A stretch of DNA of 64,000 nucleotides from contig KZ538157.1 of the NCBI GenBank assembly GCA_000934665.2, positions 1 to 64,000 of the forward strand. The letters are read 5' to 3'. Position numbers and translations under genes: made by a program. The stretch comes from Catajapyx aquilonaris. Its lineage: Eukaryota. Below, piece after piece: positions 1-64,000 of the stretch; position 1 is the stretch's first letter; the number at the start of each line of letters is the position of its first letter. The notes beneath the pieces were generated by a model. The model did not search any database and was not told the origin of the DNA. It saw nothing but the letters and a program-made list of their open reading frames with translations.

Positions 1-1412
1 CCCCCCCCCCCCCCTCCCAGAAAAAATTTCTGCATCCGCCTCTGGCTGTGGCCTATACAATAGAGGAATATAATATAGTACCGTATATTATTTCTAGAAA
101 TTACCCAGGATGGAAGTTGTGAAATTTGAATTGAAACTTTCTGGACTTATGTGGTTTTCGAAACAACTGGCATTTCAAAGCCTAGATAAATGTGTGAAAT
201 TATTATTTTTACATTGTTACAAGTTACAAATTTCATGCTTTTTTTTTGTTTCATTATCACTTTTTGCTGACCAGCTAATTAATGTTTCATAGAATACCAT
301 GTGTTCTTGGGGGGTGTACAGTTCTAGATATCTCACTTCCATCATGTAGACATTAATTTTTTTGCACTAACTGCCACTTTGCAGTATTCAAGATACGATG
401 AATATATCTTTCATTTCATTCTTAAACCCCAAAATCACGATCCCAAGGCAAGCAACATGGTAGTATTAACTCAAATATTCCAAAAAGTGGACTTATGTTG
501 TTTTCGAAACAATTGATTCAATTGCATGAACATATTTGGAACGTTTGACTTTATTCTCTTCATGGGGAATCACGTTTATCATCTAGACGGGCCAATCGGG
601 GTTTTCCCATAGCAATGTATATAAAATGATATCTAGTCCTACAAGTCAATAAAGTTTATAAGATACGAAGGGTGACCTAGGAGCTGACAGGGGTGTTGCC
701 ACATTCTTACACTTGCAGGCAAAGATTAATATATTTCCAAAAATATAGCAATGCATCAACACCGAATAGTTGCGTCAAAATCTACGTTGTTTGTAGATAA
801 TGTAGCGTGAGATATCATGCAATGGAAGAAGGAGGCTGTTGCAAAATATACTTACATAAAAATTTATAAGGTAATTCAAGCAAGGTCGAGAAATTAAATG
901 TTAGGTGACTGACGTAAGTAGCGAGTGGCATGTGTGTTCCGCGGCTTTTTTATCTCACAAATTTATGTTCCGTGTGCCTTTACATTATCAGGTGTGTTTG
1001 TTGACACTTAGGTTTTTGTAATACGTATTATTTTAGTATACAGGGGAAGAGTATACAGGCCAGATGAAGTGGCTATATAAAATTATTTCACTTAAGCACA
1101 ATATGATTACAATCCACCGGCTGTTTACAATTTACGCCGAAATATATTGAATGCAAAGGTGCTCCAGTTGTAATGTCCTTTAGTGGTTAACAATTCATGA
1201 TTTTTTGTTTTCTTATTGAAGAAGTTACTTTTGCATATTTACTTTTAGTGATTATTAAAAGTATACCGGTACTAATATGCAGCAGACTCCAGATATAAGA
1301 GACTTCAAGGGACCGTATGCCTATAATGCACACTATATACTGCATACTGATTATTGAAACTCCACAAAAATGCAAAATTAACTCAACTGTACATTACGCA
1401 GGACTTAACAAC

Positions 1413-1671
1413 ATCCGTGCATGGCTAAACCAAAGAAAAGTCTGAATGCCAATTTTTTTCGCAAGCAAAGAAATATAACGGCACCCGACTTTTTCCAGGA
1501 GACAAACTAAAAATGGATGAAATTTTATTGTTCTAATTTTAATTTGATCTCATTTAAAGCAGTACAGTCGTCCATGAAAAACCTATGAAGAGCTCATTTT
1601 ACGGTATCTAGGACCATTTTCCGATTATCCGGCGACACCCGTGCAGCCATTAGCCCGGATAATCGGGAATA
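1413..1671. mobile_element. Partial MITE, same family as 17812-18367 (lacks the Helitron insert)
   Basis: Colinear similarity with 17866-17995 plus 18228-18357; ends in CCCGGATAATCGGGA. Confidence 0.8.
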
Positions 1672-2492
1672 CGAGTGACGGTCCAATGCACCCTCAAGTT
1701 CGCCACCCTCCACTGATCTACAGTATGTCCACAATCCCCTTTGAGCGGATAAGGAATTAGTGGTTTAATTGAAGTGTGCCAAAAGGCAGGTGATCTCACC
1801 TTAAGGAGGGGGGGGGGGGATGAGATACACACAGTTGGAGTAGGCCCAATTTGAATCACGGAACATATCACAGGGTGTCTGGGTCATAAGACCACCAAAA
1901 TACCGACAACCGAAATTCCTACTGGCCAAAATAGGTTACCAACATTACCATAATATACACTTTCTACAGGCAAAAATCCCGACATTATTGTTTTTAAAGT
2001 GCATGTTATAAGTATTTCCACGAAAGAACTTCTACACAGTAACACAATGTATATTCCTAGTCAGCTAAAATATTTATTCCAGTTGGAACTGTAATAATAT
2101 TGTTGCAGCTGTAAAGTAATCACTTGTATAAACAACTTCACGTTAACAAAACAAGGCGGTGACAAACTAACCTTATGTAAAGTACGACGTAGCCTACTGT
2201 AGTCTGTAATACAGAAGTAATGTGTGAGCGGCCTATTCCTCCGGTGACCTGACGATGACTAATACCATCTATAGCACTCAACTGACCGCTCTCCTTTCCA
2301 TCTTGTAACTCCATAGTATACGCCATGAGTCTTTTGTCCCTGTGACCGATTGAACAAGTTAGTCTAATATTCAGTAATTATTTTGGTCTTGTACTGCAAA
2401 CATTATGGCAGATGGCAGTCTACTTGTAGCCGAGTCTGTCATATCCGGAGTCAACTGTATTAGCTGCTGTAACTGTTTAAAATAACCAGATT

Positions 2493-2845
2493 TTTAAACC
2501 CCGTTAGAGAGAACAGCGCTCCTTTAAGATGGTGGAACACCACCATTACCTTCAATTTTCTATATATTCTGTATGTGTTTTCTTTGGACACCGTGCAGGG
2601 AAGAAAGGACATGAGGTAGGGATGGGGATTTCTGAGGAGGAGACACGGTGCAAGTGCAATGTCATCAACAGGGTCATGTGCATTGCGAAGTCTTCCTGGA
2701 GGTAATACTCGTAGGTTGCCAGACGCCTCCAAGGCGCGGGTCAGAGACCCTCCTGACGCAGACGAAAGGGAACTCCTGGGCGGGGATCGAACCCGGGGCC
2801 TTCCGCACAGCGAGCCGAGTCCCGACTCGGCTACCACGCCTCCCC
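2493..2845 (-). mobile_element. tRNA-derived SINE, family A, full length
   Basis: A box and B box (GGTTCGATCCC) on - strand; perfect 15-bp TSD TAAAATAACCAGATT at 2478-2492 and 2846-2860; sibling at 35636-35991. Confidence 0.9.
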
Positions 2846-5375
2846 TAAAATAACCAGATTAGTGCCAAGCACGAAGGACATTTCAATTATTACAATGCCA
2901 GTTATACATGTATATAGCATGGGCGTCATTATTGGAAAGCGTGAACTGTTATGGTCATTTTATGCAGAGATGCCATTTGGTCGGTGGCGCATCACCGATA
3001 TAATTGGCTATAACACAATTTAAATGGTATTACCACGTACAGTGGAATTAATTTAAACAGCGGGCGCATCAGAGTTGTAGTAGCCAGTCATAGTGATAAT
3101 AATCAGGAGTGTGGAATGCAGGTCTAGCGACAGGGCACGTGTATTTCAGGACTTAGCACACATTTGTATCTGTTGAAATGTCGCGGACACTTAGGGATCA
3201 CATTGGTAATCCTGAACCCTCCATTTAAGTCAGCCAGAAAAAGCAAACGACAACCAGACGAGAGCATTGTTGTGGTGACTTGCTGATGCTGATATTTTTC
3301 ACACCCTGGAATATTTATTAGATTATTTTATATCGGTCATCAATTTTGCAAAATAACTGCACAATGACCTAAAAAACAACTCATCTAAATTCGTCGAGTC
3401 CGAACCACTCAAAACGATTGCTAAGGACCAGTATTTGAATGGACTTTCTAAAATCTGAAAATGAACAAACAAATGTTTAATTTTCAAACTTTGTATGCCA
3501 TTTGGTATAGACTATAGAGCAAAAACACCAGGTGTGTGGAAACAAAACAAAATATGCTGTCAGCAAATGTTTTGTTTCCACACGTACCTGGACTTTATAT
3601 AGAACCACCCAATAGAAACCTCCCAGTGTCATAGCGAGATGTCCGACAAAACTCTCATAATTATCCGAGAAACATTGTAACACACTGTGCAACATTTACT
3701 GTGGCAACCTGTTGAATATCTTATCTTACCCACTTGAATCTAGCTGGTTATTTATTTGAACCCATTTACATAAATACGTTGTCAAATATTGGAAAAACCC
3801 AGGGTGTAAGTTGCCCAGAGTGACCAGACTAGAATGGTAAGTTGAACTAAAAATAGGCGCGATACTTAAAACATTCCAGCAAAAAAGTTGTTCACCTGTG
3901 ACCTTGAACACGAGCATCAGAAGAAAAGAAAAGAAAAATCCAGCAGTAGAAAAGTATTGCGCACTGCACAGCCTCAGTCACGAGGTTGCATTTAAAAATA
4001 AGACCGGTTTAGAGCAAATATTAATAAAATGCAATGTCTTACGGGTCACAGCCCTCAACACAGAGTGCGTCAAGTGAGACACCTACAGGGCAGGATTAGA
4101 GAAATTTCAGTGTATTTTTGTAGTTATTGTGAGACTTTGGATTTTGAAATATATCCTACTGGATTTAAGAAGCGTAAAATTTCTACGCTGTAAAGTGATT
4201 GCAGTGACATCACCGCAATTAACTATAAATGTTTGTAGTCATTTGGCATTGAATTACCGTGATTGCGTCATTGCTACGGGGCCACTTGAAATGATTGCGA
4301 CGATGATGGGATTCATTGCAATTTCAGTAAAAAAGAGTCGCACCTCGTAATTACCTTCATAAAGCAGGGATTATACTGTACGTATCCTGCGTAAATCCAT
4401 ATTATCATATGTTGATAATTCAGCATTTATTCAGTGATCTAGTAGTCAATTTTTTTTGTGTGTGAACCAAATCAGGGAGCAAAATGAAATATTAACAATA
4501 TCGTTCGAATCACTCCATCAGACAGAAGGTAATATGATCATTAATTGCAATGCAATATTTAAATTTCATTTAATTTAAAATGGTTAAGTGCTGGTGTTGC
4601 TTGAAAGTTATACTTTTCACAAATACAGATGAAATTTTATACACAGTTATACACGCAGAAAATATTACATTTACCTTGGCAAGATAGTACCTTAAAGCCT
4701 ATATCTTTATAATAAAAATTCATCGATATTATTCATAATGTCATTGCTCTTTCATTTTTCCGTATTACGCCCATGACGCTGCACCTTTACGAAACAAAAA
4801 AAGGAAATAAAACAAGGTCGCACACTCCCCAAACGGCAGACTGAACGATTCCTCTCATGTAAAAGACTGCTAATAATTTGCATGATTAGGTAACACCTTG
4901 AGTCAAAACTTTCTTCCATGCCCGGAAACAACATTGTAATACCCGTAATAATTGACGGCTTGCATAAGAAAAAATCCATTTCCCCAAACTCCTCCTACCC
5001 TCATTACTTTTCCCTCCCAACTAATATGATCTAAGTGCCGATCCTTACGGTACCGATCTGAAAACAATTCCGTGACCAACCCCAGTCCTTGCTAGGTGCC
5101 AGCAGGAGCCATAATTGGTCCCATGTTACGACAAGGCCAAGTGTCGAAGGTCAACTCTGAATTCATGCGGTACAATAGTGACCAAGGCTCCGTAATACCC
5201 ACTTCCGTACCCCTAAAAAGACTAGGAACTGGAAAAAAAAGATGTAGCAAAAATACTAGTCACGCCCTCGAAGGACTATACCTCATCATCGTATTGGCCT
5301 TCATTCACCTGATGAACATCTACGTAAATTCGGACCCACTGCTGATTAGCAGTCTGAATCGTCCGTTGTGAAAGT

Positions 5376-7804: not shown

Positions 7805-7852
<48 letters not shown>

Positions 7853-8053: not shown

Positions 8054-11000
8054 GTTTATGTATTTATTAATTAAACAAATGAAGCATGTAGATGTCCAAT
8101 ACCATTACGCAGGTTGAGGCATTCCCAAAATATGAGTAAGAATTAATGAATTGTTTATCCCGGCAACCTGTAGGAATTCGCATTCTGGGACACATTCACT
8201 TGTGGTTGTTATTATTTCCCTGGTTACTACTGGAATGGACAAATTTGCCAGTTCTTCCCTTGAATTTGGGATTTGGGCAGTGTATTGTACCTATACAGTA
8301 TATTCGGCGCATAAAAAGCCCATCTCTGTATTACGTAAACCCGTTTTTTACACAAGTGCATCCCGTAGAAATATCTACGAGCATAACCTTGGCTAGACTG
8401 TTAATCCCTACATAACTCCCTGCACATAAAATATCCAGCTAAAATTACATAATAGTGCCTATGATAAATGATTTTGTTCAAGTCTATAGACTTGTCAGCC
8501 TATAAGCTATTGGCTGTGCAAACTTGGACGAACAATCCATATTCATCTCACTCCCTGTAACTCTGCATGTAATTTTATTCAGTATTAATAGGTTAATAAA
8601 TTAATGTTGGTGAGTAGGCCTACTATGTAACATCTTACACTGTTGTAAAATTTCGAAATGTGTCTTGATTGACCTAACGACTTAGTTCCCTTGAGCATGT
8701 CTCCATTACTAAAAAGAACAATGATCATCTGTCATCCCTCGTCGATTGCTGAAGGCCATCGCCCCCATTAATATCGCAGTAGAATTTGATGAGGAAAATC
8801 CTGAATGAATATTTTCCCCTCGTGTAAATGTCCCCTTAGACACAAGTTCATTGTCGCTTTACTATCACCCCGTCACTGACACGATAACATGTTTTGTACA
8901 AGATTTTCAAACCCTCTCCTGAATCGAAAGTGATCCAAACAAGTGCCACAAAAACTCCTTCATGAGCACAAGACCACAGACGGAGTTCATTTGATAAAAT
9001 TCCCCACATTGCTGAGGATTTTCCCATGACATGATTCATTGACATTGTAAGGGAAAACTATTGGGATTCCCTACGCATCTGCTAAACCTGTTTTTGATAC
9101 CTTTAGTGTTAATAATACGATAAGCTGAAAAACTGAACAAATGAAAACGCCAAAGAAATCTTTGGCTCTTTCCCATCTTTTTCCTCCTCCAGTCGAAGGC
9201 CAACATGTTGCGGGTTTACTTTTTAAGAAATCAGTATATACAATCCATGACCTACGTAATATATTTCCTCTTGATGCTATTGTGTAACACGCGGTACACA
9301 TTACACCCACATTTCACAAAAAAAAATGTCGCGCGGCAAACGGCGCGCGTTGCGGCAAATTTTTGATTTATATTTATTGTTGCCAATTGTTGGCAATAAA
9401 TAAATATAAATAATAAATTTGCCGCAACGCGCGCCGTTTGCCGCGCGACATTTTTTTGTGAAATGGCCTTTATACGTAATATAAAAGTAGCGAATCCAAC
9501 ACCATTTTTGATCAGTTCGGCAGTGTCGCGTGTGTGCACATAGAGAAAGGATGACCATGAAGAAACGTAGCTGTCAATCACTCTTTTAAAAAAAAGAAAC
9601 AGTAAACAAGTGTCCCTTACGCTTCACCTTGACCAGCATTGTTGACCCAAACACCGGCCTATATTTAAATGAGCACCCCCCACAGAAAGGCCTTGATTCC
9701 ATGCGAAGATGAAAGTTCCTGCGCAATTGATTGACCCAACCAGTGATTTGCATGTTGATTAAATGGCTTGCCTGGGGCTTTTGTTGTTCCTTCCAGGCCT
9801 TCAGCAGAGTGAATCCCGATGACATTAAAAAATTGGTGCCCATTGTTGGAGACATTTGCGAGGATCGCCTGGGACTGAGCAACGAGGATGAGAAGACATT
9901 GTCGGAAAATGTGTCTGTTGTCTTCCATTTCGCAGCTGCGGTCAGATTCGACCAGCCCTTGAAAGCTTCTATCAACCAGAATTACATGGGGACCAAACGG
10001 GTTCTTGAGCTATGCCTCAAGATGACCAACCTCAAGGTAAACTCAAAAAATCCACAATCCCAAGGTCAGCTTCGGTTGCGACATGAATTCTGGTCAATGC
10101 ACCAAAATTATACTTCGTGATGACCAGTGCTGGTCAATTTTCTACACTTGACTCAGAATTTGAACAATGAGCATGGCACGATGTGATCTTCCACAATGTC
10201 CTTCTCACCAAGAGTTACATCATTGGTGCCATAAAAATGTGCTATTTTACAGGCGCTGGTGCACGTTTCTACTGCTTATTCAAACTGCGAAAGAGAAGAA
10301 ATAAACGAGGTCGTATATCCAACCAAAATGGATCCTGATGATGTGGTTAAATGTGTGAACCTATTCAACGACGAAATTGTGGACAACATGACACCAATGT
10401 AAGTCCCAACATCGCGGCGTATACGAAGTGTTAACAAAATATGCTCTTTCAGATTGTTAGGAGAGAAGCCAAACACCTACATTTATACCAAGTCTTTGGC
10501 TGAAGTATTAGTGGCTCGTCACAGTGATCGAATTCCAGTAGCCATCATAAGGCCATCTATAGGTAGGTGCAGGATAAATATGTTACGTACCACCAAACGA
10601 GGTGAGATTGTTCCAGCACATTTTTGCATGATGAGGGATAAACTAGCGAATTTATAAGGTTGGAAAATGCGCCCTGGCACAATCTCACCCCATTTGACGA
10701 TTTGTTGCTGTCGTACCATCTCATCATGGGAATACGAACTGGCTTTTGCTTAGCCTTGTACGTCCTCCTCGGACACGGCCACGGTAAATTATCTCGGACA
10801 AGAAATGGCCATGAACTGTGCATTCATGCAAAAAAAAAAGCGCTAATCCTACAATGCGACTTTTGGGGCGTTAATAAACACGATCGGACTTTTTGTTGGC
10901 AGTGATTGCATCGTGGAAAGATCCTATACCTGGTTGGATCGACACAATGAATGGTCCGGCAGGATTGTCCATCGCTGTCGGTAAAGGAATACTTAGAAGC

Positions 11001-12507
11001 TTCCCAGTGGACAAGAACAAGGTGGTGGACTTCATTCCAGTGGACATGATCATCAACCATGCCATTGTTGTCGGTTGGAAAACTGCAACAGACAGGTGAT
11101 TTTGACAACGTCACTAGCATCCTGTACAAAATTTCACTCATGCAGGACCGATCGGCTTTCGCGAAAAAGACACGTCTAATCGATTTCCCTCAACAACTAG
11201 TTTCGCGGCTTCGAATATACTAAGTTACGTCCAAGTATCTATACAGTATAATGATTGGGAGGCCCCTTTTTGTTGTCATACGTGAAAGCGCAAAATGTGC
11301 TGGGAAAAATGGGAAGCCAAATTTTTGCGAGAGTCCGAGTGACCTCATTCCCTCATGGTTTTGCGTGCTTTTGTGATGACGGAAGAACACTTGCCATTTT
11401 CTTCGCGAAATCACCAGAGCGGTTATATTAAGGTCAAGTTAACTTCTGATGAAGGTTAACTACTTTTTTTTTCGCACGGTTAGGAATCGGGCAGACGAAT
11501 AACGCAATTTGTGCTTTTCCAGCCCGTACCAAATGGCCGTGTACAACAATACATCCGGAACTTTGAACCCGATGACTTGGGGCGACTATGGTCATCTGGC
11601 CGTGACACATTACCTCCGCAATCCAATGCTGAATGTGCTGTGGTATCCCAGCACCACCTTCTTCCAGGGACCAATGAACCATGTTCTTAAAGACCTCTTC
11701 GTACATTACATACCAGCCAAAGCCATCGATGCAGTCCGGAAGGCTTCGGGGAAGAAACCAAGGTACGATTGAGTCATACCTCGGAAGTAACGTATATCAT
11801 GCAAATCAGGTGGGCGGACACACATGGAAAATAAGGTACAACACCTAACCTTACTGTGGGCTCGGGGCCGAGAGAGTGGCCTAATTGGTAGGCCTAGTAG
11901 GTGTTAAATGAGCATGAATGCAATGATTGCACTTGTATTAGTGGCACGTGATGCTTTTTTGTATGGCCTACATTAGTGCCGCATGGTTGGATCCAACTTC
12001 CTACTTCAAGTCACGTGCAGAAGGCAGTCTTTACTTATGTAAAAGTCACATTTTTTGATCCTGATGAGTGTTTTTTTGCAGAATGATGAAGTTTTACAAT
12101 AAGTTATTGCGCATTCATCGAGCATTGGAAGTGTTTACCAAGAAGGAATGGCGTTTCCATAATGACAACACAATGGCGATGTGGAACAGTTTGAGTCCGG
12201 AAGATAAAGAGTTGTTCCCGTTTGATGTGTCCAGTGTCCATTGGCCAACCTTCATAGCGCATTGTATGGCCATGGGAGTCAAGTGCTTGGATGACATGGA
12301 CTTTGACAGGATTCCAGAAGCACGCCGACACCTCAGAAAGTGAGTCAATCACCGCCAATGTTGACCAACCGTCGCTTATTTCATATCACACTGTAATTTG
12401 ACCCCCTTTTTCGTTTCAGGTTGTACTGGGTTCAGTTTCTGGTTCACGGACTGTGCCTGGCATTGTTGGTCCAACTTTTGTGCACGCTATTTGGCGTCTT
12501 TTCCTGA
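5669..12507 (+). CDS. FAR: Fatty acyl-CoA reductase (alcohol-forming FAR), 8 coding exons, 487 aa
   Basis: join(5669-5857,9797-10036,10253-10398,10453-10562,10903-11095,11523-11762,12082-12339,12420-12507) = 1464 nt. All introns GT-AG with matching phases. Motifs VFVTGATGFVGKVLLQKLLR, VFHFAAAVRFD, LVHVSTAY, PNTYIYTKSLAE (YxxxK), IIRPSIV, PIPGWID, D.IPVD, EWRFHNDN, FPFD; hydrophobic C-terminus. Confidence 0.96.
6531..6729. mobile_element. pogo/Tc1-type MITE in FAR intron 1
   Basis: TIR (C)CGTCA..GGGGTGAGATTGTGCCA / TGGCACAATCTCACCCCTTTTGACGG, flanked by TA. Confidence 0.8.
7805..8052. repeat. Two compound microsatellites: (AAT)n(GGT)n(GAT)n and (CAT)n(TAT)n
   Basis: Read directly at about 7805-7890 and 7972-8052. 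Confidence 0.95.
9310..9465. mobile_element. Near-perfect hairpin element (MITE-like)
   Basis: Arms of about 75 bp, CATTTCACAAAA..GTCGCGCGGCAAACGGCGCGCGTTGCGGCAAATT and its reverse complement. Confidence 0.8.
9797..10036 (+). CDS. FAR: FAR exon 2
   Basis: ttccttccag|GCC; AFSRVNPDDIKKLVPIVGDI...VVFHFAAAVRFDQPL...MTNLK; donor AAG|GTAAAC. Confidence 0.94.
10253..10398 (+). CDS. FAR: FAR exon 3 (not in ORF track)
   Basis: ttttacag|GCG; ALVHVSTAYSNCEREEINEVVYP...; donor AT|GTAAGT, phase 2. Confidence 0.93.
10453..10562 (+). CDS. FAR: FAR exon 4 (catalytic YxxxK)
   Basis: Follows a 54-nt intron; LLGEKPNTYIYTKSLAEVLV...IIRPSI; donor G|GTAGGT. Confidence 0.94.
10590..10700. mobile_element. Internally deleted sibling of MITE 6531-6729, in FAR intron 4
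   Basis: GGTGAGATTGT.CCAGCACATTTT, TAAACTAGCGAATTTA and CTGGCACAATCTCACCCC are shared. Confidence 0.75.
10903..11095 (+). CDS. FAR: FAR exon 5
   Basis: VIASWKDPIPGWIDTMNGPAG...DFIPVDMIINHAIVVGW; donor AG|GTGATT. Confidence 0.93.
11523..11762 (+). CDS. FAR: FAR exon 6
   Basis: ttttccag|C; PYQMAVYNNTSGTLNPMTWG...LWYP...HYIPAKAID...GKKP; donor AG|GTACGA. Confidence 0.93.
12082..12339 (+). CDS. FAR: FAR exon 7 (FAR C-terminal/Sterile domain)
   Basis: tttttgcag|A; MMKFYNKL...FTKKEWRFHNDN...DKELFPFDVSSVHW; donor AA|GTGAGT. Confidence 0.93.
12420..12507 (+). CDS. FAR: FAR exon 8 (terminal, predicted membrane anchor)
   Basis: cgtttcag|G; LYWVQFLVHGLCLALLVQLLCTLFGVFS then TGA at 12505-12507. Confidence 0.88.
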
Positions 12508-14420
12508 GGGTTTAAAAATAACACCCGGTATCAATTTCGCACATCTTAAAGTTATGACACAGATACATGGTGCACTTGGTTGCACTGAAAGTAAGGCTGA
12601 AGCAGGAAAGCTGCAAGAACATTAACGAAAGTTGCAACACTAGTTCTTCGAAAAGTGAAATCTGTCTCATTCTGCCTGCTTCTCCAACCTTTTTTTTTGT
12701 TTCACCTTCTACCTCCATGGCAACTTAAGCCGATCCATAATGTAGCGTAGTGATTGCCAAGTTCCGTATTGTTCACGCCTTTGGATATATAACACAACAA
12801 GATGGCGATAAACATAGATGGAACGAGGAAATGTATTTAAGTTAATAATAATTATGCACGGATGAAAACCTATTTCGGTCTAGTTTTTGTTCGTTATTTT
12901 TGTCTTGTTTTCAGCCAAGTGCCCTCTAGTGTGTCCAAAGTTGTACAACTGTAGGAGGAAATCCTTTGATGTTTTCCGGATCAAAACCGGCTAGTCGGGA
13001 CACGTACTGATCAGCATGTCAAGAGGACCACTCTTCCTTTCACCTTCAGCAGGTGCTGTAGGTTAGCAAGGGTATAAAATATGTGATGGTACTTGATGTC
13101 GAGACGATGTGACTGGTATAAACGGCCTTGAAATGGCCTTTTTAGATTGGTGGGAGTTAGGGGGAAGGAGGAGAAAAAACAAGTTCAAACAAAGAACATT
13201 AGGGAAGGAGGGAAACCACAAAATTATGGACTGTCATCAAAATATGGTAGCTAAATCATGTAGTGAAACTACACCGGGAAGCAGGTACCGGTATGGAAAT
13301 TTGTAGGCTAACCAGTACATAAAATATTACGCAATAGACAAAAATGAAAATGCAGGAAAACTCATCACAACAGGCAGTAATCCCGAGGCTGTCATAAAAA
13401 TTCTATGCTTCACTAGGAAATAAGCAAAAAAGGGTCGAAATAAACACACAACTGCCATCCACAGTGTTTCATAAATTTATACATGGATTTGGAAAGCTTA
13501 TTTAATGGGTTTTCCCATGAAGTGTGTAACTCACTGCAAAATTGAAGGTGATGCGACAGGAGCGAGAGGATTGGCAACACATTGGACCAAGTGTATTATG
13601 CAAAGAATAAACATTGAACACAAAGGAAATGTACACACTACACATGACCAAGAGGCTGACTAACTGGCTAAACTGACCTGAGGCGATTAGGCACCATGTA
13701 TGACGCAATATTATCAGGAAAGAACGGTACCTATTATTAGCTATTTTTGGCAATTCTCAAGAATTTTAATATGCCCTAGATAATGTGGAAATTGACAATA
13801 TGTGCTTTTTCGAGGTTATGGATGACGGGTAAACTCAGCCATATGTACAGTACCGGTACTTATAGTAATGAGTCAATCATGCTTGTGCTGCCGTCGTCAC
13901 GCCCACCGCGTCCAGAAGGGTATGTATCTCTAGTGTAAACTGCACATTACTTGATGCCAGTGTAGGTGAAATGGACAATTAGCGTATGTAAACAACCTTC
14001 ATGAATATAAGGTGGGAGTCAGCCAACGTGACAGCACGCTACAGTAGGGGCGGAGAGAGGACTTGGCAAAACCTGAAATAAAATCTATGACATTACTAGG
14101 ATGTCATAGACCGCTTAATCAGTTGACGTCCGCGATGTCCATTACAGTGACATAATTTATTTTGACAGTTTATTGCCTGAAAGTACGTACAATTCTTGTG
14201 CAGGTATGAAGTGCCACAACTGCGACCTTATATCTTTGAAAGGACAGGAACCGGATGTGAGTTAGCGTTCAACAACAGCAACAACAACATCAACAACAAT
14301 CAACCGAAAAAACAACCGACAGCACCAGAGATTACGTGTGTGTTTTTTCCTTTCACTTTTTTTAAATTTTTTTAACGAAGATGAATCAACCTGTGAACAC
14401 TAGCGATGATTACGTCATTA

Positions 14421-42870: not shown

Positions 42871-43839
42871 ATCTATACCGGTGTAGCCTACCTAACTGAA
42901 ACTGTAATACGAATAATGTAGACGCATTAATCATCATTTCCACCTGCTCTCTGTTGCTAAATTTTTGCTATGAATTAGCTAAAGGTAAGATGATAAAGAA
43001 TAAAGTGAAAATATTATCGCATGTCCACATAGCAAAAAATCCACTGGGGTCAAGTTTGGTGACCTAGGAAACCATTAAACCGTCACACTTCTGCCTGCAG
43101 TTGTGACAGGAGCCTCGTATACCTAGACATGCTGGATAATTACGCTGTTCCCCATCAATTACCAGCTGGAATTGCCTTCTAACAAGATGGTGTACCACCC
43201 CAATACATAGTCATGGTGAAGCATCATCTGAATTATGATTTAACTGAGAGATGGATCGGGAGAGGTGCAGTAATATTGCATGGACTTCATCTCAGGGTCT
43301 CCTAAGTCTTCAGACTTTACAGGAGAAACTACCGGCCATAATTGTAGGCCTAATTTTGTTATTTTGAGAGAAACCATCTCCTCGTCGCTCGCGATCATTC
43401 CACTCAATCCTATGAAATATCTGAGTAACAACGAGAACTAGGTCATGTTACAACAGTATCCTTATTCAGGCATTTCCATCTCCTCCTGGTGTACTACTGC
43501 TTATTGGTTCTGACATTTGCCAATACTGTACTTTCAAAGCAATCATCTGGCTTCAGAACTCACGACAGGAGTCCTAGTGTCTCCTACTATAGGGATATCC
43601 TAAATTTACATAATTTTCATTGTGACGATTATTTAGTGTAACTAGCTGGCTATCGAGCGTCGGAGGACATCAAGCCTTAAATCAATTCCTAATGACCTGA
43701 ATAGAACATATGCTCCGATTCCTCCCACTCCTATTATTTGCTCAATTCACGGGGCAGTAGTTAGGTTTGAGTTATTTGCGTTATCATTTTAAATGACTCA
43801 ATAACTCAGCAACACTTGAAAGGCATTTGGTGTTCATAA

Positions 43840-45429: not shown

Positions 45430-46939
45430 AAGCTGCAGAATTTTTTGATTTTTTGGCCAAACATATGGACATTTATACAAGTACTGCACATGATATCTCA
45501 TGACTGGTTCATTTCTTTGGTCGCGGTTCGAGGGGCTGCATTTCAGCATTTTTCTTGAACCTCGCACATGATTGGCCGTCTGCTAGGATATAATAGTTTA
45601 TTCATTCTGACATGACAGAGACACAGAACTAGGCAATACAGTGGTCAGCATTTCAGGAGGAAATAAAATTTCCAACAGCCCTTCCGCTCCGTGTCCTTCC
45701 TTATCGTTTTCTCCCTCTTCCCGCCCCAGCCTCTCCCCACTTTCCCTCCTCCTCCTCGGAACAAAGTGAGGGAAGGGGGGAGGAGCAGGGGAGGCCTGCT
45801 TGGAGCAGGAGAATTCATCCGGATCCAGCATCAAACATTCAGGACCAGCATCCAATATTAATCCCTGGGCGGTCAAGAGCCGCACCTGCATCGCCAATAT
45901 CAGGCCTGCAACAATCGACTTTGTATTCAGCCTTACCTCTCCACAACGTAAAAAAAACGAACAGAGATACCGATAATTACGCTGAAAAAAAAGTCGATAT
46001 CTCATTTCGCTTCTGCTTGTACTCATATTGATACTAACTTTTAAATGGCGTGGAAGCCGATGCTGTATATCAAGTCGCATCTGGGGGAAAATAATTCCGG
46101 TCTGAAAGGGTTGCCATATTTGTCTTCCCCAAACTTTTCCAGGAGGGGGAAAAAAATAAATCTGGAGAAGATTGTAACTGCCTTCTCCGGGAGCTTATGA
46201 ATGTCTGAGTTCATAATCGCATATGAAAAAGTGACCTCTGCCGGATGATTTCAGGAGGCCATTTTTTAGAGAGGGGCCTAGAATAGTTGAAATGGAGAAT
46301 GTATATTGCGGAGTCCTTTTAACTGAGAAGCGCTTGAAAATCGATTGCGAGCAGTACGCAGACAGGTTTAATGCGCGTCATTAGCCCTGGAGCTTGATGA
46401 ACGCAATTTCGACACCTACGGCCTTTGTTTCGCACAACTCCCCGTTTGCTCCTCTCGTTTGCCCATTCTGTGAAACAGATCAAGTGAAATACCATTGTCC
46501 CCCTTTTTTACAGGCACAAAAAAAGGTGATATAGAAGCGCTTGCTTTATTTCGAGCGACGAAATTTTTTGAACATCACGTTCCAAATGCCAACTCATACC
46601 GTACAGTATATGCTGCGCTGTGTGTATACTGCACAATGCACATGCTCCCATGTTACATGAGCACCAACATATCTTTTTGGCACGTAACAAGCAGTAATAA
46701 TTTCATTTTAGGTATAATATTGCATGCAGTTTATTACCACAATGGTACATTCAACTTAAAATTAAAATTAAATATACGGATGAGATATGTCGAGGTACCA
46801 ACTGCTTGAGTCATCCTATACAAGTGTACATAATACGAGCCGTAGTTATCCCACCCCCACAATCCTGTGAACATATTGTGGGCATGGTGTAGTTTTTGCC
46901 TCTGAATGACATTTCTGCAAAACTGCTGTTTTTAATTAT

Positions 46940-47577: not shown

Positions 47578-49730
47578 CACTGTTCTACAAAATAACACTT
47601 TTTTCTATTTTCTGAGGATTTGAATAGTGATTCTTATTGTACAAGTACTTTTTGCGCTGAATCCGAATATCTACTCAGAAGGTTCCTGTCAGGACAGTTT
47701 TCGAGATTTATCGTTTTAAAATTTTGAACGGTTTACTAAGGGTCTTTCCGAATCAAGTGGGCCTCAATGTTGCTAGACCGGCTCGGATCTTGGTGAAAAT
47801 AATCACAGATGTACTCACCTATTCCTTAATGCTGTTTATGAAGTTTCAGCCATATTGCGAAATACTATGATGAGGAAAGAAATCCCAAAAATCTGGAAAT
47901 TGCTGAAAATGAGGCTTTTTTGAAGAATTTTTTCGGTTAGTGGAAATGGTCAAAAGCAAATTAACATATATACCGAAAGAAAGAGAAACGGGATCCGGAC
48001 TTTTCGCCCCCTCCGTTTCGCCTCCGGACTTTTAGCCCCCGGCATATTGGCCCCCGTGACATATTCCACTTTGAAGCATTCGGCTGGGCATTTCTAGAGA
48101 AGTGACCTGGCCTTGTGTGTAACCTGGCAACGGCGGGGGCGGGCGCTGATTGGCTCGCTGTTTCGTGCCTGATTTATAAAATGAAATTTTGTGGTCTTCT
48201 GCTTGGCTCACAGGAATGGAGGTGCGCTTTGTGTTGGTGATGCTGTATGGTTTTTTGTTACCGCAACAGTACTGTCCATTCCTGTGGCCCTGCCAGGCAC
48301 GGTCCGTCGCCCGTGCGTGATATTTTTAGTTTTTGCGGAGCGATAGAGGAGCTGGGCGCTTATTGTGGGTTTCTGTATCCGCAACATTTACTGTCCGTCT
48401 TGTGGCGCCGCAGGCCAACGAACGTTATTGTGGCTTTGCCCACCACGACGAAATTGTCACGGGGGCCAATATGCCGGGGGCTAAACGGCGGGGGCGAAAA
48501 GTTCGAGACCCAAGAGAAACACCTGAAAAATGCGCCTATGGAATTGGTTGTCCTCTCAAATGTAAAAATAAAATTTTATAGCATTTCACTGGTCACTTGC
48601 TCAGTCACATGCCCAACAATTGTGACCTCAACAATTAGTGATGTATTTGCGTTACATCAGTCATATTTGGTGGCACTAGTTGTGACTGACGTAAGGTTCA
48701 GTATGTCATGTTTGAGGCTTGGAGCATGCAGGGTTCGCGAGAAAATAATAACTTAGATATGTTTTGCAGATATACCGTTAATTCTTCTACAAAAAACCCA
48801 TTTTTCCTATTTATGAAGGTGTGAATAGTGATTCTTATAGTACTTCTTGCCTTGAGTCCAAGTCTGCACTTAGAAGTGTGCTGTCGGGCACAGTGTTTGA
48901 GATGTACTGCATTTACTAATATGTAGTAAATACAGTAAATGCAGTGTATCGCAAACACTGTGTCCGACAGCACAATTCTAAGTGCATATTTGGACTCAGG
49001 GAAAGTACCGTACTATAAGAATCCCTATTCACATCTTCAGAAATAGGAAAAAGAGTTTTTGTAGAAGAGTGAAATTAACGGTATATCTGCAAAACATATC
49101 TATTATTTTCTCGCGAACCATGCATGACCCAGGTCTCAAACTTGACATACTGAACCTTATGTCAGTCACAACTAGTGTCACCAAATATGACTGATGTAAC
49201 GCAAATACATCACTAATTGTTGAGGCCACAATTCTTGAGCATGTGACTGAGCAAGTGACCCGCGAAATGCTATAAAAATTTATTTTTACATTTGAGAGGA
49301 CAACAAATTCCATAGGCGCATTTTCCTGGTGTTTCCCTTTCATTTGATATATATTATGTTCATTTGCTTTTGAATACTTCCACTAACCGAAAAAAATCTC
49401 CGAAAAGGGCCTCATTTTCAGCAATTTCCAGATTTTTGCGATTTTCTTCCTCGTCATGCTATTTTGCAATATGGCTGAAACTTCATAAGCAGAATTATGG
49501 AATAGGTGAGTACATCTGGGATTATTTTTACCAAGATCCGAGACGGTCTAGCAACATTTAGGCCCGCTTGAATCGGGAAGACCCCTAGTAAACCGTTCCA
49601 AACCTTAAAACGATACCCGACAGCCTGACAGCCTGACAGCACAATTCTAATTACATATTTGGAATCAGCGGCGAAAGTACCTATTGAAACACATATCATA
49701 ACCTGAGAAAACCTTCCTTGTCGAACACTG
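47578..49730. mobile_element. Large foldback DNA element (arms of about 800 bp)
   Basis: Left arm 47578-47989 plus 48512-48917 is the reverse complement of 48934-49730; termini CACTGTTCTACAA / TTGTCGAACACTG; TTA on both sides. Confidence 0.88.
47990..48511. mobile_element. Non-autonomous Mutator-like element (MULE) inside the foldback
   Basis: 9-bp TSD AAGAGAAAC at 47981-47989 and 48512-48520; TIRs of 60-80 bp built from ACTTTTCGCCCCC-like units. Confidence 0.88.
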
Positions 49731-52222: not shown

Positions 52223-54621
52223 CCTCCCTGTGTAATAATATTATGCCAGAGGTTTCGCAGAGTTCCTTATCACGAGGCGACTGGGTTTATTAATGCCATG
52301 CAAAATAAACTTAAATTACAGTACAGTATCTTGTTATCACGTCTATCAAAAAGCAATCTCCATAAAGTATAGGTTCTCTTTAATCGATTACAGCGACATG
52401 AACGTAAGGTTCAAAGACAGGTTAGGGTCTATTTTAGAAATTCTACATAATCTTACAGTGTTACTGTCACTCTATCAGTCAGCTACAGTTTAGTAGCAGA
52501 TGTCATCCTCATGCGGAAATAGTTACGATGTGTTCTCTCCTGAAAACTTGAAAAATGTGCCCACGCTAAATATTATAATAATAATATCACAAGGTGCATT
52601 TTTGACCAGTATTATTTCTGCGACAAGAATGTACAGTACGTACAATAATCCCTGCTCACGCCCATTATACATTCTATAGGGTATAAACCTATACTCGCAA
52701 AATCTTGACATTGTTTGTAAAATCTGATCCTTTTAAGAAGCCATGCAACTTAAGTGTTTGCTCACCCAACTTTGATTTATTCTTGCCGAAAGGAAGGACC
52801 TGCTGAGTGGCACTTCTTTCCTTTTGGTGAAGCGGAGTTCCACTTCACCCCCTTCCAAGAGAAGTATTCTAGGAAAGCGCCGGTACTGTATACCCCCTGC
52901 ACTATCCGTCCAAACCCCCGTCTTTTGGCCCTGGCGGCGTCAGCGGCAAAAGGATTCAATATTGAATTCCGGAGCCAGCCCGCAAAACTCGAAATAACAG
53001 GCGAAAAAAAGCACTCCTTTTTGCGCCGCCATTTTTTTCTTCTTTCCCTCCCCATCCGCCCCCTAGCGGACCTATACCTACAGATTTATGAGAATAACTT
53101 CCTGGAGCGGGATTCTTTACGAGTTTTTCCAGTCATGCTCGCGGAATCAAAGTGAAGCTGCGCAGACTATCCAGAAGAAAACGTCTCCGGACCACTCTCC
53201 ATTCATATAAGGCCAGCCTTAGATTCCCCGCCACTAAGTTTCTCTTCGGGGTCTTTCATTTTTTTTAAAGGGGAACCCCCCCCCCCCCCAAACTCTGGAG
53301 GAATATTTTCGCTCCATCTGATACAGATGCGGCCCTTATCGAATGCCCTCATGCTTTTCCTTTGGGCAAGATGGGCAGAGACGCTGTTCTGGATGGTGGT
53401 AAAAGAAGAAGACCTAGTCTTAAAATTGCCTTCATTTTGTTCTGCCTCAGCGAATGGAGTCAGAAAAGTCGCTATCATGCAGACAACCAAGGCGACCTTT
53501 GTAGGCATCCAGTTTCCTTGACCACGCTGCCAATCACAAAAATAATAGCAACAGAAACTATGCCGTAGTGGGGGGCTTTGCGTTCAGAAACAACCGCTAC
53601 TACTGCAGATACGGGTGTACTTTTATAATGGAGCACTCTGGCGGCTTTTTTTTTGTTTGTTTTTTGAGAAAATAGTTTGGGAGAGAATCCGGCATTCTCC
53701 AGATGATCATGATGGCTGGCACTGAGAAAGGCGGAAACAGAACCGAGTCCAAAAATATGACGAGTTCCGCAATTTTAAAACACAAATCCGGTTTCACATG
53801 GGTCGTTGACTTTGTCTTTAGTTGGAAACCACCGATCAGCGCTGGCACAACTAACCATAACGACCCCACATCGTAACGCTGCATATCTCTACAAACCTCA
53901 TCATTTATAGTTTACCCATACTTTTTTTTTGAATCCTGCCTGTCTCTACAAAGTTATACCCAGTCTATCCCAGTATCGGAGGAAGAAAAAATGCAAATCC
54001 GAGAAAGAATTAGGTTGTGAGCTCCGTGAAAGCGAATCCCCTCCTACTCTCGGATTCACGAAGATAAGGAGCCTCACTGTACTCCAGAAGATTGAAGAGG
54101 CAGTCAGGTTGGAATAAATCTAAGGATGCCACCACCACCATCCTCTCCCCCCATTTCCTCCGCCTCCCTCCTGCCCCTTCCTCCCACCTCCCGCGTGCCT
54201 GCTTCTCAATGTAATGAGAAGATTTCCGTCTATCTCGACCCGACGTTCACCCAAGCCTTCTCACTCCCTGCTTGTTTTTTTTATAGGCTATACAATTTTT
54301 GCACACTTAGGTGACCTATTGCAGGTAATGGCGATTATAATCTCATTTAGTATTTTAATTTTATGTGATACTCGCAGGAAAGTCTAAAAGTATGATGTGC
54401 CATATTAGTGTAATAGTTGTGACTTCCCTCGTTAGAGGGCGGATATGGACCTGGTGGGGAGATATCTTTTGTATATAGTGAGTCGTGGGACGGCCTGGCT
54501 CCGGGCCAGTCGTAGTAAATGGGTTGCTCCGAACCTGTTGTATTATTGGACCACGACCCTGAGTGACCTTACGGGGTCAAGAGGGATGACCTGAGGTCAA
54601 TCCCTCACAGTCCAAATGTTA

Positions 54622-56187: not shown

Positions 56188-56271
<84 letters not shown>

Positions 56272-56597: not shown

Positions 56598-57591
56598 TGA
56601 AACATGTGAAATAAGGACAGACTAAGTCCACTTTTCCGGAAAAATATTTTTTCGTTCATATGATAGTATGGAGGCCCTGGAGCAGGATGGTGTGGGAGTA
56701 AGAGTTTAAGGCCGCCGGGAAGTCTCTGAAAATGGGTGCCTTCTTATTGATGCCATACTCATGTAATATAAGAACCAGACTAAGTCCACACAGTTCACAA
56801 TGCTTGGTAATGTACGGCAAGGCTAAGTCACATTTTGTTACCCTTATATCCCTGTAAGTTGGATTAATGTATTCATATCATTTTCAATAAATATTCAGAT
56901 TATGTATCACACTTAATTGTATAAATGTTAAAACGTTAAGTAGACTACCCCATCTTGCCCCAAGCTCCCCTACCATTTTCAAGTCAGTACATCTGAACGA
57001 TGGGCTGTCTACAAGTCAGTACCGTAGATGGCATTTTGTTGATCACAAAGTACCACCTTCGGAATCGGTACATGAATTACAGTAGGATGTCCAATGTGCA
57101 AATGAAGCCATGTGCATTTGTAACAGTTTTTTTCATTGCTCGTCAAGCTATTTCGAAATGAGATTCTGTATGTAGCACGACGATGCGACATTTTAATGCA
57201 TTTGATGGCTTCCACATTGAACAGAGTGCCTCCTATAGACATCCGTCAGCTTTTAACAGGGCCAGAAATTCATTGAAATCAGTCGAGCGTAATTTGAGCA
57301 GGATTTCATCATCAGGAGAGAACGTGACTTATGCGGAACAAAATGTGATACTCCAGGTGGATGATTTGATGCGCCTCTATAGCTTGTTGCAGAGAGTTGG
57401 CACACACATTCTATCGCAACTTGCAGAATGCACAAAATTATTGTCAGCCACAGAAGCGTACAGGCTTTCTCGCCATGGGTTTTGGAATTTTTTGCAAATA
57501 ATTCCAATATTAAATGCACTCGGATACGTGGCCAAAAAAGAGCGTTGAAATATAGGCCTACTTCATACTTTATAAAATCCTGAATCTTTTA

Positions 57592-58458
57592 GAGCCGGTT
57601 GTATCAACGCAAGTTTTCTATAAGCCTGCGGTTACCAGGCAGTAAATCCGTGATTAACGAAAACCACGTTGTATCAACGCGAGTTTGCGCAAACCTGCAG
57701 TTAAATCTCGGATGAACACTAACCTTCCTATTTGGCGGTTTTCTCGTTCGAACGCGGCCGTATTTCGACTTATCTAGTCGTTTTTGAGCATATTTTCAGG
57801 TGAATATGCACTGAATACCTCATCTGAAATTGTTGATGGGGACTGCACAGAGGACCGGGAGTACACTGGGTACGACAACGAGGCGAAACCACCCCGAAAA
57901 AAGGCTGGCAAAATTCAGGGGTAAAATAGTTTTGTTTGTTTGTTTGTTTGTTTGTTTGTTTGTTTGTTTTGTTTTTGGCCAGCCAACGAGTCCACCTGCG
58001 AGCGGGTCAGACATGCCCGGCGTCTAGATCAAAGATGGGGGCCGCTATGTTAGTTGGGTAATGTGACATTTGGTTGTGTGGCGTACAGTGTTGGTCATAA
58101 ATCGAGGCATATTGCTAGCGACATTTTCCGAGGCGGCAGGAGATGGAATCGAAGATAAGGATACTGCAAGCCGGGCGAGCAAGATCTTCTGCCGCTTCGG
58201 AAAATGTCGCTAGCAGTACGCCTCGATGAATGTCCAACACTGTACACGTCACGTGACATTTCCAGCCAATGGGCTACAGCAGCGGTGAGCGATGGATAAA
58301 TTTGGAATAGCCCCTGAGGTGATCGCGCGAATTTTCAAACCACAGATTAAGATAACCTGAGATGTATTGATACAACGCATGTCGGAGTTTTCTGAAAACC
58401 TCCGGTTTTGAAACCTCGGATTTTCTCCTCATTTAACTCGCGTTGATACAACCGGCCC
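57592..58458. mobile_element. Non-autonomous PIF/Harbinger-like element
   Basis: TIR G.GCCGGTTGTATCAACGC / GCGTTGATACAACCGGCCC with internal repeats of GTTGTATCAA; flanks TTA / TGA. Confidence 0.75.
58086..58242. mobile_element. Hairpin MITE nested in the Harbinger-like element
   Basis: TA-CAGTGTTGG ... CCAACACTG-TA, arms of about 58 bp. Confidence 0.8.
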
Positions 58459-60771
58459 TGAGAGTAAGAGCCAGAGTATATTTAATTAGTCATTAAACCC
58501 ATATGCTCGCTTTTTAAAGCAGGAAATGTGGTTATTAAGTGAAAAGTGCCTGAAGTGCTTTTTTTGGAGGAATCAATACATGCAACGTACACATAGCGCT
58601 GTAGGCATGTATAAAGTTCATGATCGGTTGGATGCCAATGAGAACAAGCAAGTGGTTAACGTTTCCAATTACTCGTGCGTGGTTCTACAGGTAGGCTACT
58701 AATCTACTTAAGTAACTTGACTGGTTGTTTACTCTCAACTTGGTCGCCACAGCAAAACATATAATCGCAGGAGACCGAACTACAGTGCTTGTTGTTCAAG
58801 GTGATAATTACGTAACCGAATAAACATAATTATAGATGCTCTAATTATATTTCTAAAGTTCTAAACGCTCTCTGGCTCAGATAATGACATCTGAATTAAT
58901 AAAATGTAGGAGGTCCCGTACCTGTCCTAATTATTTACAACAGTGCAGTGTAATCCAAGCACTTTACACTAGAGTAATGCCAAGTTTAGAAATTCAATTT
59001 AAATTGTCGAGCTATTGTAATCATGCGATTGAAGAACGATAATGGATCTCAATCAAGCTTACATTGTATAGCCTACCCGTGTAAGGTGTTGGACTAAAAA
59101 AGTAATGAGGCTTCTCCCCTGCCAATAAGAATTCAGGGACATACGGAAGGCCCAGATAACAAGACTCGAATCTCAAAAAAGGTCCCTACTACTGCGGAAA
59201 GTCCTCAGCACAACTATTGGCCTTTGAGGACAAAAGAGGATCCCAGGAGGAAAAGTTCCCACGACTGGAAAGACTAACGACTAAAACACCCACTACCGAA
59301 ATGGCCTACCGGCAAAAAGTCGTCACCACCAGTCGTCCCAATAGGTCCTCACCTCCACAGGATGGTAAAAAATTGGCGCACTTCCTATCGTACCGTACTT
59401 TGTCTCCTGGTAACATATTGCTATAAGATTTTTTAAATTGTTTAATTTATTTTGACATTTTTTTTAGATAAGAGGATGATAATTTTTGTTATAGCCAGAC
59501 AGAATATTCTGAAGAAAATATTATCTCCCAATATGTGCAATTTCCACAATACAAACTGTGGAGACCTTTTAGGCAATAATGTAGGCCTATCATCAGGTCA
59601 CTTATTATAGGTTGGGCAGTTCGGTACTAGACCAACCCTGCAGGAAGCGAAGGTTTGTGAAGTAGCTCTGAATATCCTGAGTCATTACAGTGTCAAGTTT
59701 AACAATGCAAAATTCTGGCATGATTGTCCCAAGAGAAGTTATTCGTCGATCGTCCCCCCAACCGAAACTGATGTCCCGACCGGTTCTTTCTATTGCTCAA
59801 GGTCCTAGAAAGTTTAGGATCTAGGCCTACTTGATTCTTCAACCAAAACGGTTCAGCATTTCTCTTTCTACAAATCTATGAATGACTATTTTATCTACCC
59901 GACACCTTCACTGTGAATAAGTGCAGTTATGTAAATGCCTACATTTATTACATTAGAATTGAAATGTACTGTATGTAATGAACGAATGATTCAGTATTTT
60001 TAAACAATATAGCCTGCAGTATTAGTGAACACAATGCTGTGCAGAAGATCTCGTCGAAAACATCGTCGCAAGCAGAGAGTAACTTCCGAATGCGATGCGA
60101 TCCCTAGACAGCTGCAGGGCAGTTGTGTGCACGTGCTTTTAGTCGCTAAGTACTAAGAAAATTCCGAGTCCCTTCTGCACGTATTATCCCTGTCCTAAAG
60201 GGCCGGGCGTGGAAATCTCATCGCAGTTTAACGCCATTAGGGGGAAGCCTCTGTAGACCTCATCCTCCGCGCATTTTGACGCTGTTAACAAGGATAAACA
60301 CAAACAATCGGAGGCTTCCGGGCCCTTCCTTCGGGGGAATTCCTGGTCTAAATGGTGAGGCTGATGCCTTCTCCAGACACAGGATCTCAAAAACCCAGCA
60401 ATAAGTCAAACTTGGACTCAAAGGTCAGTTCAGCTCAAAATGTGGCCTGCCTGGACCATGCCTCTCAGTGCTCATCTGGAAATGCGTTCACAGACCCCCA
60501 TGTGGCAACGCTGTCATTACGTAAAGTGGGATTTGATGTTGCAATTAAACGGGACACCATGACTGTCAAAAGCGTCAAGAGGTATTAATCGACACCAAAA
60601 CCAATCAAACCGCAGACCTGTTCAAACACTCGTCCAGAAGTCATGCAAACTTGTTACCTCACTGAAACTTGATCATGTTCAAATTGTGTGGTTTACGTTT
60701 ATATTATGCATATTATAAGTTCAGCATTGGTCTACTCTAGGAATAGCTGTGAAAGTGCCTCATCAGGTGTA

Positions 60772-63227: not shown

Positions 63228-63565
63228 GGCATAAACAGGACGATTGAACAATCAGTCACGTTTGACCTCGCCCCATTGTTGTGTTCAATATGAAGCCGGA
63301 GAAATGGTATAGTCACCACAAAACTCTGGAATATTCATTCGTAAAGCTCTATCGAGTCCCGATAATGTTACCTATTATTTTCTAAATGCTCACTAATTCG
63401 CAAAACAATAATCTAATATGTATACCGCTACGGTTTATTACGACTCGTACTACAGCTGTCCATAAAGTGCTGGTAGCGGTGGACAGTGCTAGGATGGAGT
63501 GGTATCTGATAGTGCCAGACAAAATATATAGGGTAATGGTGTAAAATCCGCAACTTATTGTTACG

Positions 63566-63567
<2 letters not shown>

Positions 63568-63627
<60 letters not shown>

Positions 63628-63891
63628 TCATACCCCGTTATCAGCCAGCGGGTCTTTAGCGGGGATTTATTTTTTTGACTGGAACTCTTCGTTTCGTTTT
63701 TACTGCGCTTTTTGGGATAGGATATAGGAAAGGAAGGAGGCGGCTGTCGCCTATTAGTTTAGGAAACAACTCCGGAGGAACCGTGGGAAACCACAGAAAA
63801 CCACTGTTAGAGTTGCCGGCACCGGGATTCGAACCCAGGACCTCCCGATAAGCAGTCGGATACCATATCCCCTCCGCCACCACTGCTTCGG
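63568..63891 (-). mobile_element. SINE family E, second copy, with (ATT)n tail
   Basis: Colinear with 46940-47234; flanks TATTGTTA(TA)CGAT duplicated. Confidence 0.88.
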
Positions 63892-64000
63892 TATTGTTAT
63901 ACGATTATAGACTACCCTTTACCACAAAAAGGCCAACATTTCTCGCACACGAGTCAACGGCCTCACTTTGATTATTGCGTATCGACGTGAGCCACCTCAC

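Follow-up and report, generated by a model that had tools for sequence, protein, structure and literature searches.

Over-represented TA-bounded words in the genome of Catajapyx aquilonaris as probable footprints of excised TA-targeting transposons

[quoted passage not shown] An earlier note on this DNA had described it as dotted with short words bounded by two TA dinucleotides, and had read them as excision scars of at least three types of transposon. These words fall into a CAG series (TACAGTA/TACTGTA), a GG series (TAGGCTA/TAGCCTA and the eight-letter TAGGCCTA) and a CC series (TACCGTA/TACGGTA and the eight-letter TACCGGTA). They are most likely insertions at TA and excision footprints, and we consider it likely that they are the fixed footprints of TA-targeting Tc1/mariner and pogo elements, left by the CAG-, GGGG- and CC-ended donors proposed below.

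Over-represented words in the window and the genome

Along the whole window (positions 1..64000), the five motifs occur at 91 sites, made up of 53 CAG 7-mers, 11 GG 7-mers, 12 GG 8-mers, 10 CC 7-mers and 5 CC 8-mers. The CAG 7-mers, formerly estimated at about 50, comprise 35 TACAGTA and 18 TACTGTA, against an expectation of 10.9 under an order-2 Markov model and of 18.4 under an order-4 one. The 12 copies of TAGGCCTA agree in number and position with the previous count and compare with 0.6 expected (1.4 at order 4), and the other words said to recur do so as well: TAGGCTA/TAGCCTA (11 against 4.6 expected), TACCGTA/TACGGTA (10 against 5.0) and TACCGGTA (5 against 0.6). Since about 22 of the 91 sites are expected by chance, a single site without a sibling copy cannot be called a scar. 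The proposed density of about one scar per kb holds in the window, where the excess amounts to about 69 sites (1.08/kb), but not elsewhere, as it falls to about 0.51/kb in a 718-kb sample of the genome; for TAGGCCTA, the densities are 0.19/kb in the window and 0.06/kb in the sample. Long contigs from four runs, all of one sample that may be the source DNA, agree with the unique stretches of positions 26000-45350 to within 0-2 differences, and the window motifs in this region are not an assembly artefact. This unique DNA shows almost no allelic differences in the four runs of that one sample, which would correspond to either low heterozygosity or collapsed alleles.

The sample taken elsewhere in the genome is not random, as 400 kb come from large contigs and the remainder was picked around repeats and transposases; redundant repeat copies were masked for the enrichment, word-class, chain and flank tests. 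When the words were compared with a Markov background, as the earlier note had proposed, the top three of the 32 TA-nnn-TA words in the 718 kb turned out to be those of the same three series, namely TACAGTA (305 observed, 96.9 expected; 3.15x), TAGCCTA (107/38.9; 2.75x) and TACCGTA (77/38.7; 1.99x). Similarly, the top non-microsatellite words among the 136 TA-nnnn-TA types were TAGGCCTA (36/5.1; 7.0x) and TACCGGTA (27/4.3; 6.3x). As controls, 7-letter words framed by AT or GC did not exceed 1.9x in the same 718 kb, nor those framed by CG 2.2x. In the whole assembly, TAGGCCTA is present 17,585 times, against 1,881-2,339 copies expected and 6,335 occurrences of its reversed control. The three series show about 0.5 excess sites per kb, which by a rough extrapolation from this non-random sample would mean about 150,000 sites, 0.75 Mb or 0.3% of the genome, and the same procedure gives about 83,000 excess sites for the CAG footprint words. 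The suggestion that such events are a major source of small insertions is only partly backed by this excess, and the words make up a small minority of the indels in repeats: a first scan of repeat indels, with little power for 7-mers, found the series types in 2 of 55 five-base and 1 of 37 six-base indels.

With regard to coding DNA, CAG 7-mers number 7 against 5.8 expected (1.2x) in 82 kb of long open reading frames (ORFs), and 387 against 117.7 (3.3x) outside them. This test is a weak one, as most of the long ORFs encode transposases and represent host exons poorly, and TACCGTA reaches 2.3x in them. The frame-keeping TAGGCCTA is still found in long ORFs (nine entries, about seven of them distinct, mostly in transposase ORFs), whereas the host exons of the window contain no motif site in 1,456 bp, where about 2 would be expected. 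The overall pattern weakly suggests a depletion of frameshifting scars.

Other TA-bounded words are also in excess in the 718 kb, such as TACGTA (1.64x) and TACTATA/TATAGTA (1.71x), which could possibly be scars left by C-ended elements (in the 1+1 form, one base per flank) and by CTA-ended MITEs, respectively. MITEs with CTA ends exist in the window, for example at 28547-28650 and 60770-60915, and the excess of TACTAGTA predicted from them is absent from the word counts of the sample (7 against 5.5 expected).

Insertion of the words at TA

Evidence for insertion came from repeats. In an empty-site test, siblings of each motif located in a repeat alignment were scored as having either the filled or the collapsed form (plain TA). 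Microsatellite-like and nested-TA words were excluded from this test and from the gap test, and alignments exceeding both 99.5% identity and 300 bases in length were left out as well. Siblings lacked TAGGCCTA at 8 of 11 distinct sites, whereas the other TA-N4-TA words were empty at 9 of 308 (p 1.5e-9), and the three 7-mers were empty at 12 of 51 sites, against 11 of 269 controls (p 2.8e-5), with TAGGCTA/TAGCCTA (6/13) supplying much of the 7-mer signal. Under a stricter exact-gap test, the result for the 8-mers was also significant (5 of 16 against 13 of 458).

Four motifs of the window had been put forward as demonstrable insertions, and two of them are clean. At 27920..27927, a TAGGCCTA scar inserted at TA within a CAG-ended MITE, the 6 bp are missing from 2/2 siblings, and the empty-site test found three siblings empty and none filled; at 18356..18362, a TAGGCTA scar in the right terminal inverted repeat (TIR) of a MITE, the 5 bp are missing from 3/3 other TIR copies as read by eye, MAFFT having set the gap elsewhere. 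The TACCGTA at 49006..49012, a probable scar in a foldback arm, is ambiguous when compared with the opposite arm (net +2 bp, not clean) and is backed by one other copy only, the empty one at locus L141. Finally, the TAGGCCTA at 35711..35718 is not demonstrable as an insertion, because it lies in the tail of a SINE-like repeat, a part that varies freely among the 9 copies compared.

The flanks of the motifs in the 718-kb sample mirror each other, G/A on the left being matched by C/T on the right, as expected from a palindromic target site. Moreover, motifs of different series share a TA in mixed chains 16 times, against 4.85 expected, whereas control chains number 17 against 12.3. Three of the mixed chains lie within the window, consisting of a GG-series followed by a CAG-series scar (2190..2201), a CAG-series followed by a CCGG scar (13846..13858), and a CCG-series followed by a CAG-series scar (46597..46608). 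Slippage would be unable to make such chains, which could be explained by the repeated use of a target by different elements: a scar leaves two TAs, often in the favoured G-TA-C context, so that the sites would be reused and chains would form. The chain scan also found pairs of CAG scars on a shared TA at 38779..38790 and 52317..52328, together with two TAGGCCTA on one shared TA at 22610..22623, which may be either a chain or a local duplication.

In view of the enrichment, the empty siblings, the symmetric flanks and the mixed chains, the interpretation of the words as insertions and footprints stands, and excision is very probably the process that produced these insertions. Some observations, however, count against it. 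Two of the 12 'empty' calls for 7-mers resemble alignment artefacts, and the exact-gap test, which has little power for 7-mers, gave for them 5/60 against 16/425 (p 0.17, not significant). Pairwise 'empty' calls with a single sibling do not polarise insertion versus deletion. In addition, no allelic indel and no heterozygous allele were detected in the four runs compared with the window, which derive from a single sample and are dominated by repeat-derived contigs.

Candidate donors and the formation of the scars

As previously claimed, CAG-ended MITEs are present in the window, where TIR pairs with TA on both sides delimit one element at 24256..24718 (repeat family D3/D16, carrying a SINE-like insert), which represents the donor type for the CAG series, and a hairpin MITE at 58084..58244. 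In 741 kb, 14 TA-flanked CAG-ended TIR pairs were found, some of them with a transposase and including Tc1- and pogo-type elements, and the inner bases of the CAG series are those of the ends of resident TA elements.

The CCG- and GGC-ended donors of the earlier interpretation did not hold up in the same way. No CCG-ended MITE of the window was confirmed by the TIR search, and the genome sample yielded no CCGTA-ended TIR pair, only single CCT- and CCA-ended elements (L058 and L037, respectively). A CGG-bounded hairpin of about 200 bp at 31948..32146 was rejected as a general donor: a near-constant G run plus TAC precedes most of its 72 genome matches, which makes the boundary of the hairpin ambiguous. 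The hairpin would either insert into a specific target or belong to a larger composite element.

For the GG series, a relaxed search of 1.01 Mb, a sample equivalent to 0.35% of the genome from which a rare family could escape, found no TA-GGC family. A MITE of 462 bp (L034:119-584) that at first resembled a TA-GGC-ended element was rejected as the TA-GGC donor, given its 3-bp ANT duplication and AGGC ends (24/30 copies, by hand), and A occupies position -2 in 96% of its sites but in 34% of the TAGGCCTA ones. This is a young MITE, with copies 98% identical and 242 end matches genome-wide, whose autonomous partner was not found. By its ends and duplication alone it can be regarded as Pangu-like, as it has the ANT duplication and ends starting with AG, and the available text of PMC4482050 gives a 3-bp ANT duplication and ends starting with AG or GG as the signature of Pangu (PHIS). 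Loci of the PIF/Harbinger type were likewise rejected as GGC donors, with TA-GGC ends in none of the 12 examined out of 153 DDE_Tnp_4 matches; the same available text describes ISL2EU as duplicating AT, not TA (PMC4482050).

DDE_1 loci showed TA-flanked elements with GGGG ends, among them one of 2,592 bp with a 514-aa ORF (L111) and one of 2,304 bp with a 478-aa ORF (L119). Both ORFs contain DDE_1 and HTH_psq, and that of L111 also HTH_Tnp_Tc5, with HTH scores barely above the cut-off. DDE_1 with DD35D is found in L111, L119, L126, L127 and L112, several diverged GGGG-ended pogo-like lineages with long open frames that coexist in this genome. The GGGG end pattern has 249 matches in the genome, against 19 for a control. 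All 16 of the 16 two-ended copies examined, from 44 bp to 3.2 kb in length, are flanked by TA at either end; the base before the TA is G in 71 of the first 100 end matches (hand tally), and the TIRs are about 26 bp long. In a tree of 12 proteins, all from this genome, the G-ended ones fall in one eight-row group (100/100, with long branches flagged). Tight clusters of two or three GG-series motifs over about 15-45 bases are seen in or beside the DDE_1 elements at L114, L122, L126 and L127. Local hopping, suggested by the density of TAGGCCTA near the DDE_1 loci L111-L130 (11 in 60 kb, 0.18/kb against 0.04 in random sequence), was discarded, as the PIF loci give a similar value (0.14/kb).

By their features alone (DD35D, HTH_psq, HTH_Tnp_Tc5 in L111 and TA duplication), the G-ended elements are similar to the Fot-like pogo elements. 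As far as the available text of PMC7386202 goes, the diagnostic features of the latter are a TA, TAA or TAAA duplication and, in most members, TIRs of 40-60 bp; its table contains GGGGG or GGGGT ends in a red alga (TAAA duplication) and in Entamoeba (TA duplication), and the hosts given are protists and algae, with no animals. The TIRs of about 26 bp found here differ from the usual length, although the G-ended red-algal members also have TIRs of 24-26 bp, and the end motif GGGGA gave 0 matches in a keyword search of that pogo table (PMC7386202). The available text of that paper gives no account of footprints of Fot-like elements.

The formation of the scars would start with the insertion of an element, which would duplicate the TA. 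Upon excision, the transposase would leave 2-3 bases of the element behind on either flank in the form of 3′ overhangs, to be sealed by end joining between the two TAs. For the CAG series, 3-base CAG overhangs would pair at their outer bases to produce TACAGTA/TACTGTA. For the GG series, unpairable G overhangs would be filled in, resulting in TAGGCCTA (2+2), TAGGCTA/TAGCCTA (2+1) and TAGGGCCTA (3+2), and the CC series would derive from CCG-ended (Passer-type) or other CC-ended elements as putative donors. For all the series, this cut and repair chemistry is what we infer from the words and the element ends.

Several data are consistent with G-ended donors for the GG scars. In a flank test, the G-donor profile, which was built from 56 G ends, partly chosen by us and possibly including chance matches, fits GG scars more closely than CAG scars (p 1.1e-4), and the opposite is true of the CAG-donor profile; the mixture fractions for G-donor and CAG-donor are 0.49 and 0.14 for TAGGCCTA, and 0.18 and 0.41 for TACAGTA. 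The 3+2 class (TAGGGCCTA), with a copy in the window at 28831..28839, is found 13 times in the sample against 2.8 expected, and for the 4+2 ten-mer class a hand tally of the first 50 sites listed gave 33, which scales to about 480, against 217-249 expected. An 11-letter pattern, of a length unsuited to the question of 3+3 scars, shows no excess (269 against 387 for its control). The GGGG-ended elements explain the GG series equally well, and a GGC-ended donor is not needed; on balance, the evidence tips towards the GGGG-ended family having made this series. More tentatively, a lineage of Fot-like DD35D pogo elements with GGGG ends might exist in animals and leave a stereotyped filled-in scar (TAGGCCTA together with the related 7- and 9-mers), of which tens of thousands would have become fixed in this genome, about 100 times the surviving elements.

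This link between donor and scar is indirect, and several results argue against it. No site was found to hold an element in one of its copies and a scar in a second one, nor was any G-ended element found within the 64-kb window, and about 40,000 GG scars compare with a few hundred visible G ends. The G at position -1 seen in 71/100 of the donor ends falls to about 52% in corrected scars, and control TAG words lean to G too (mixture fraction 0.12). A 3+3 test did not distinguish GGG from GGC ends (9 against 8 of 50), the ten-mer class as a whole, at 732, stays under the 1,049 of its reversed control, and there is no enrichment of the 2+0 (0.98x), 3+0 (0.92x), 3+1 (0.94x) and 1+1 (1.19x) members of the GG series. 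The excess of the 3+2 and 4+2 forms could be explained by slippage within existing TAGGCCTA. Moreover, the CA-ended elements are not accompanied by a 2+2 excess: TACATGTA, the 2+2 form known for C. elegans Tc1, is barely enriched (1.33x), which would confine fill-in to the GGGG family.

The alternative that survives best is an unseen, rare or extinct TA element with GGC ends and 3-base overhangs, whose outer bases would pair to give the 7-mers and whose self-complementary GC tips would pair to give TAGGCCTA. The same rule could apply to CCG ends, whereas CAG ends, whose AG tip is not self-complementary, would give no 8-mer. A single rule would in this way explain the 8-mers of GGCC and CCGG and their lack in the CAG series, and would account for the unenriched 2+0 and 3+0 G words. 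CCG-ended pogo elements are also real, as the pogo table of PMC7386202 has 150 whole-word occurrences of CCGTA, those examined being TIR motifs of Passer. This reading has to face, however, the failure to find a TA-GGC family in about 1.0 Mb, a sole candidate with the wrong duplication, ends and flanks, and an excess of 4+2 forms that it does not predict; furthermore, six GGC-starting five-letter motifs (of 16 possible) gave 0 whole-word matches in the available pogo table (PMC7386202). A GGC-ended origin of the GG series is regarded as doubtful.

Visible donors are far fewer than scars, which would be easier to understand if the insertions arose without any resident element, either from a repair or nuclease process adding a fixed palindrome at TA or from abortive cutting by a transposase. 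The duplication of the TA, the inner bases matching the ends of resident TA elements and the flank profiles tracking the donor families make this very improbable, and no process of that kind is known to us. Slightly less credible still is that the words belong, as ends or internal segments, to abundant repeats (TACAGTA to Tigger-type ends, TACCGTA to Passer-type ends) and are not scars. Roughly a dozen sampled TACAGTA are indeed Tigger-like ends (by eye), and a few motifs are ancestral to their repeats, to judge from the filled rows in the empty-site test. However, the enrichment survives the removal of redundant copies, only 4/53 of the CAG 7-mers of the window fall in stretches that match other loci of the sample, and when inverted partners of the window motif sites were sought, just 3 weak matches resulted; together with the symmetric flanks and the empty siblings, these data largely refute it. 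Finally, the words can scarcely be selected binding sites or products of substitution bias since, although short palindromes would be typical of binding sites, these words arise as whole insertions within transposons and SINE-like repeats and form mixed chains.

Known excision systems and further features of the window

Excision footprints of transposons are an established phenomenon, and it is their scale that is unusual here. In elements of the Tc1/mariner type, the cut on the non-transferred strand lies a few bases inside the element and end joining leaves its first or last 2-4 bases between the TAs, the footprint of Sleeping Beauty being TACAGTA or TACTGTA, as described in the available text of PMC6943129. 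The CAG series, taken as fixed excision footprints, coincides in the identical words, the duplicated TA and the inner bases provided by the element ends, but Sleeping Beauty footprints come in that text from single experimental events, whereas a fixed genome record with two further series is seen here. For Tc1 of C. elegans, the part of PMC4490562 available reports non-complementary 2-nucleotide 3′ overhangs and repair by polymerase theta, with 26 products in 103 animals. Such unpairable two-base overhangs offer a model for TA-GG-CC-TA, although the worm products described there are very varied and those found here are few and stereotyped.

In the case of Passer, the accessible text of PMC9976928 gives footprints of 0-4 bp, and the CCGTA ends and TA duplication in that of PMC7386202 make it a natural candidate for the CC series, with no CCGTA-ended pair in the sample studied here. 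A survey in rice, based on genome comparison, found mostly deletions and fillers among the excisions, with 8/94 perfect ones (PMC4423477, available part); fixed excisions are a source of indels in both cases, the difference being that here they were found as over-represented words. A literature search, with most subscription papers, Repbase and Dfam outside its coverage, returned nothing on these words as a genome-wide footprint record. The new contributions would be the statistics on empty sites, the chaining of scars, the exclusion of a false donor and a candidate donor-scar pairing that is plausible but unproven.

The textbook footprints, known from single experimental events, are countable genome-wide in this species, and such counts make testable the lifetime excisions per family, the cut depth of unassayed families and the germline repair route. 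Footprint words will also surface as false regulatory motifs in motif searches, and a candidate parent of TAGGCCTA with long ORFs is now concrete. If the same applied to other animals rich in TAGGCCTA, the spectrum of TA-bounded words would be a fossil record of transposon families, cut depth and germline repair, even after the loss of the elements.

With regard to the remaining features of the window, a fatty acyl-CoA reductase-like gene of about 8 exons (read by eye, with an approximate first exon boundary) maps to 5671-12508, and one of its exons matches PF07993. A probable GG scar lies in an intron of this gene (8615..8622) and another one, also intronic, at 11889..11896, both of them TAGGCCTA copies without sibling. 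Other copies of TAGGCCTA regarded as probable GG scars from the motif count are located at 15348..15355, 18446..18453, 43345..43352, 57553..57560, 59582..59589 and 59822..59829. The foldback at 47709-49615 is nested, and its arms measure 225 and 239 bp. At 55995-57081 lies an element of some 1.1 kb bounded by long inverted ends, which carries a SINE-like copy besides an AAT microsatellite and a 12-bp tandem repeat.

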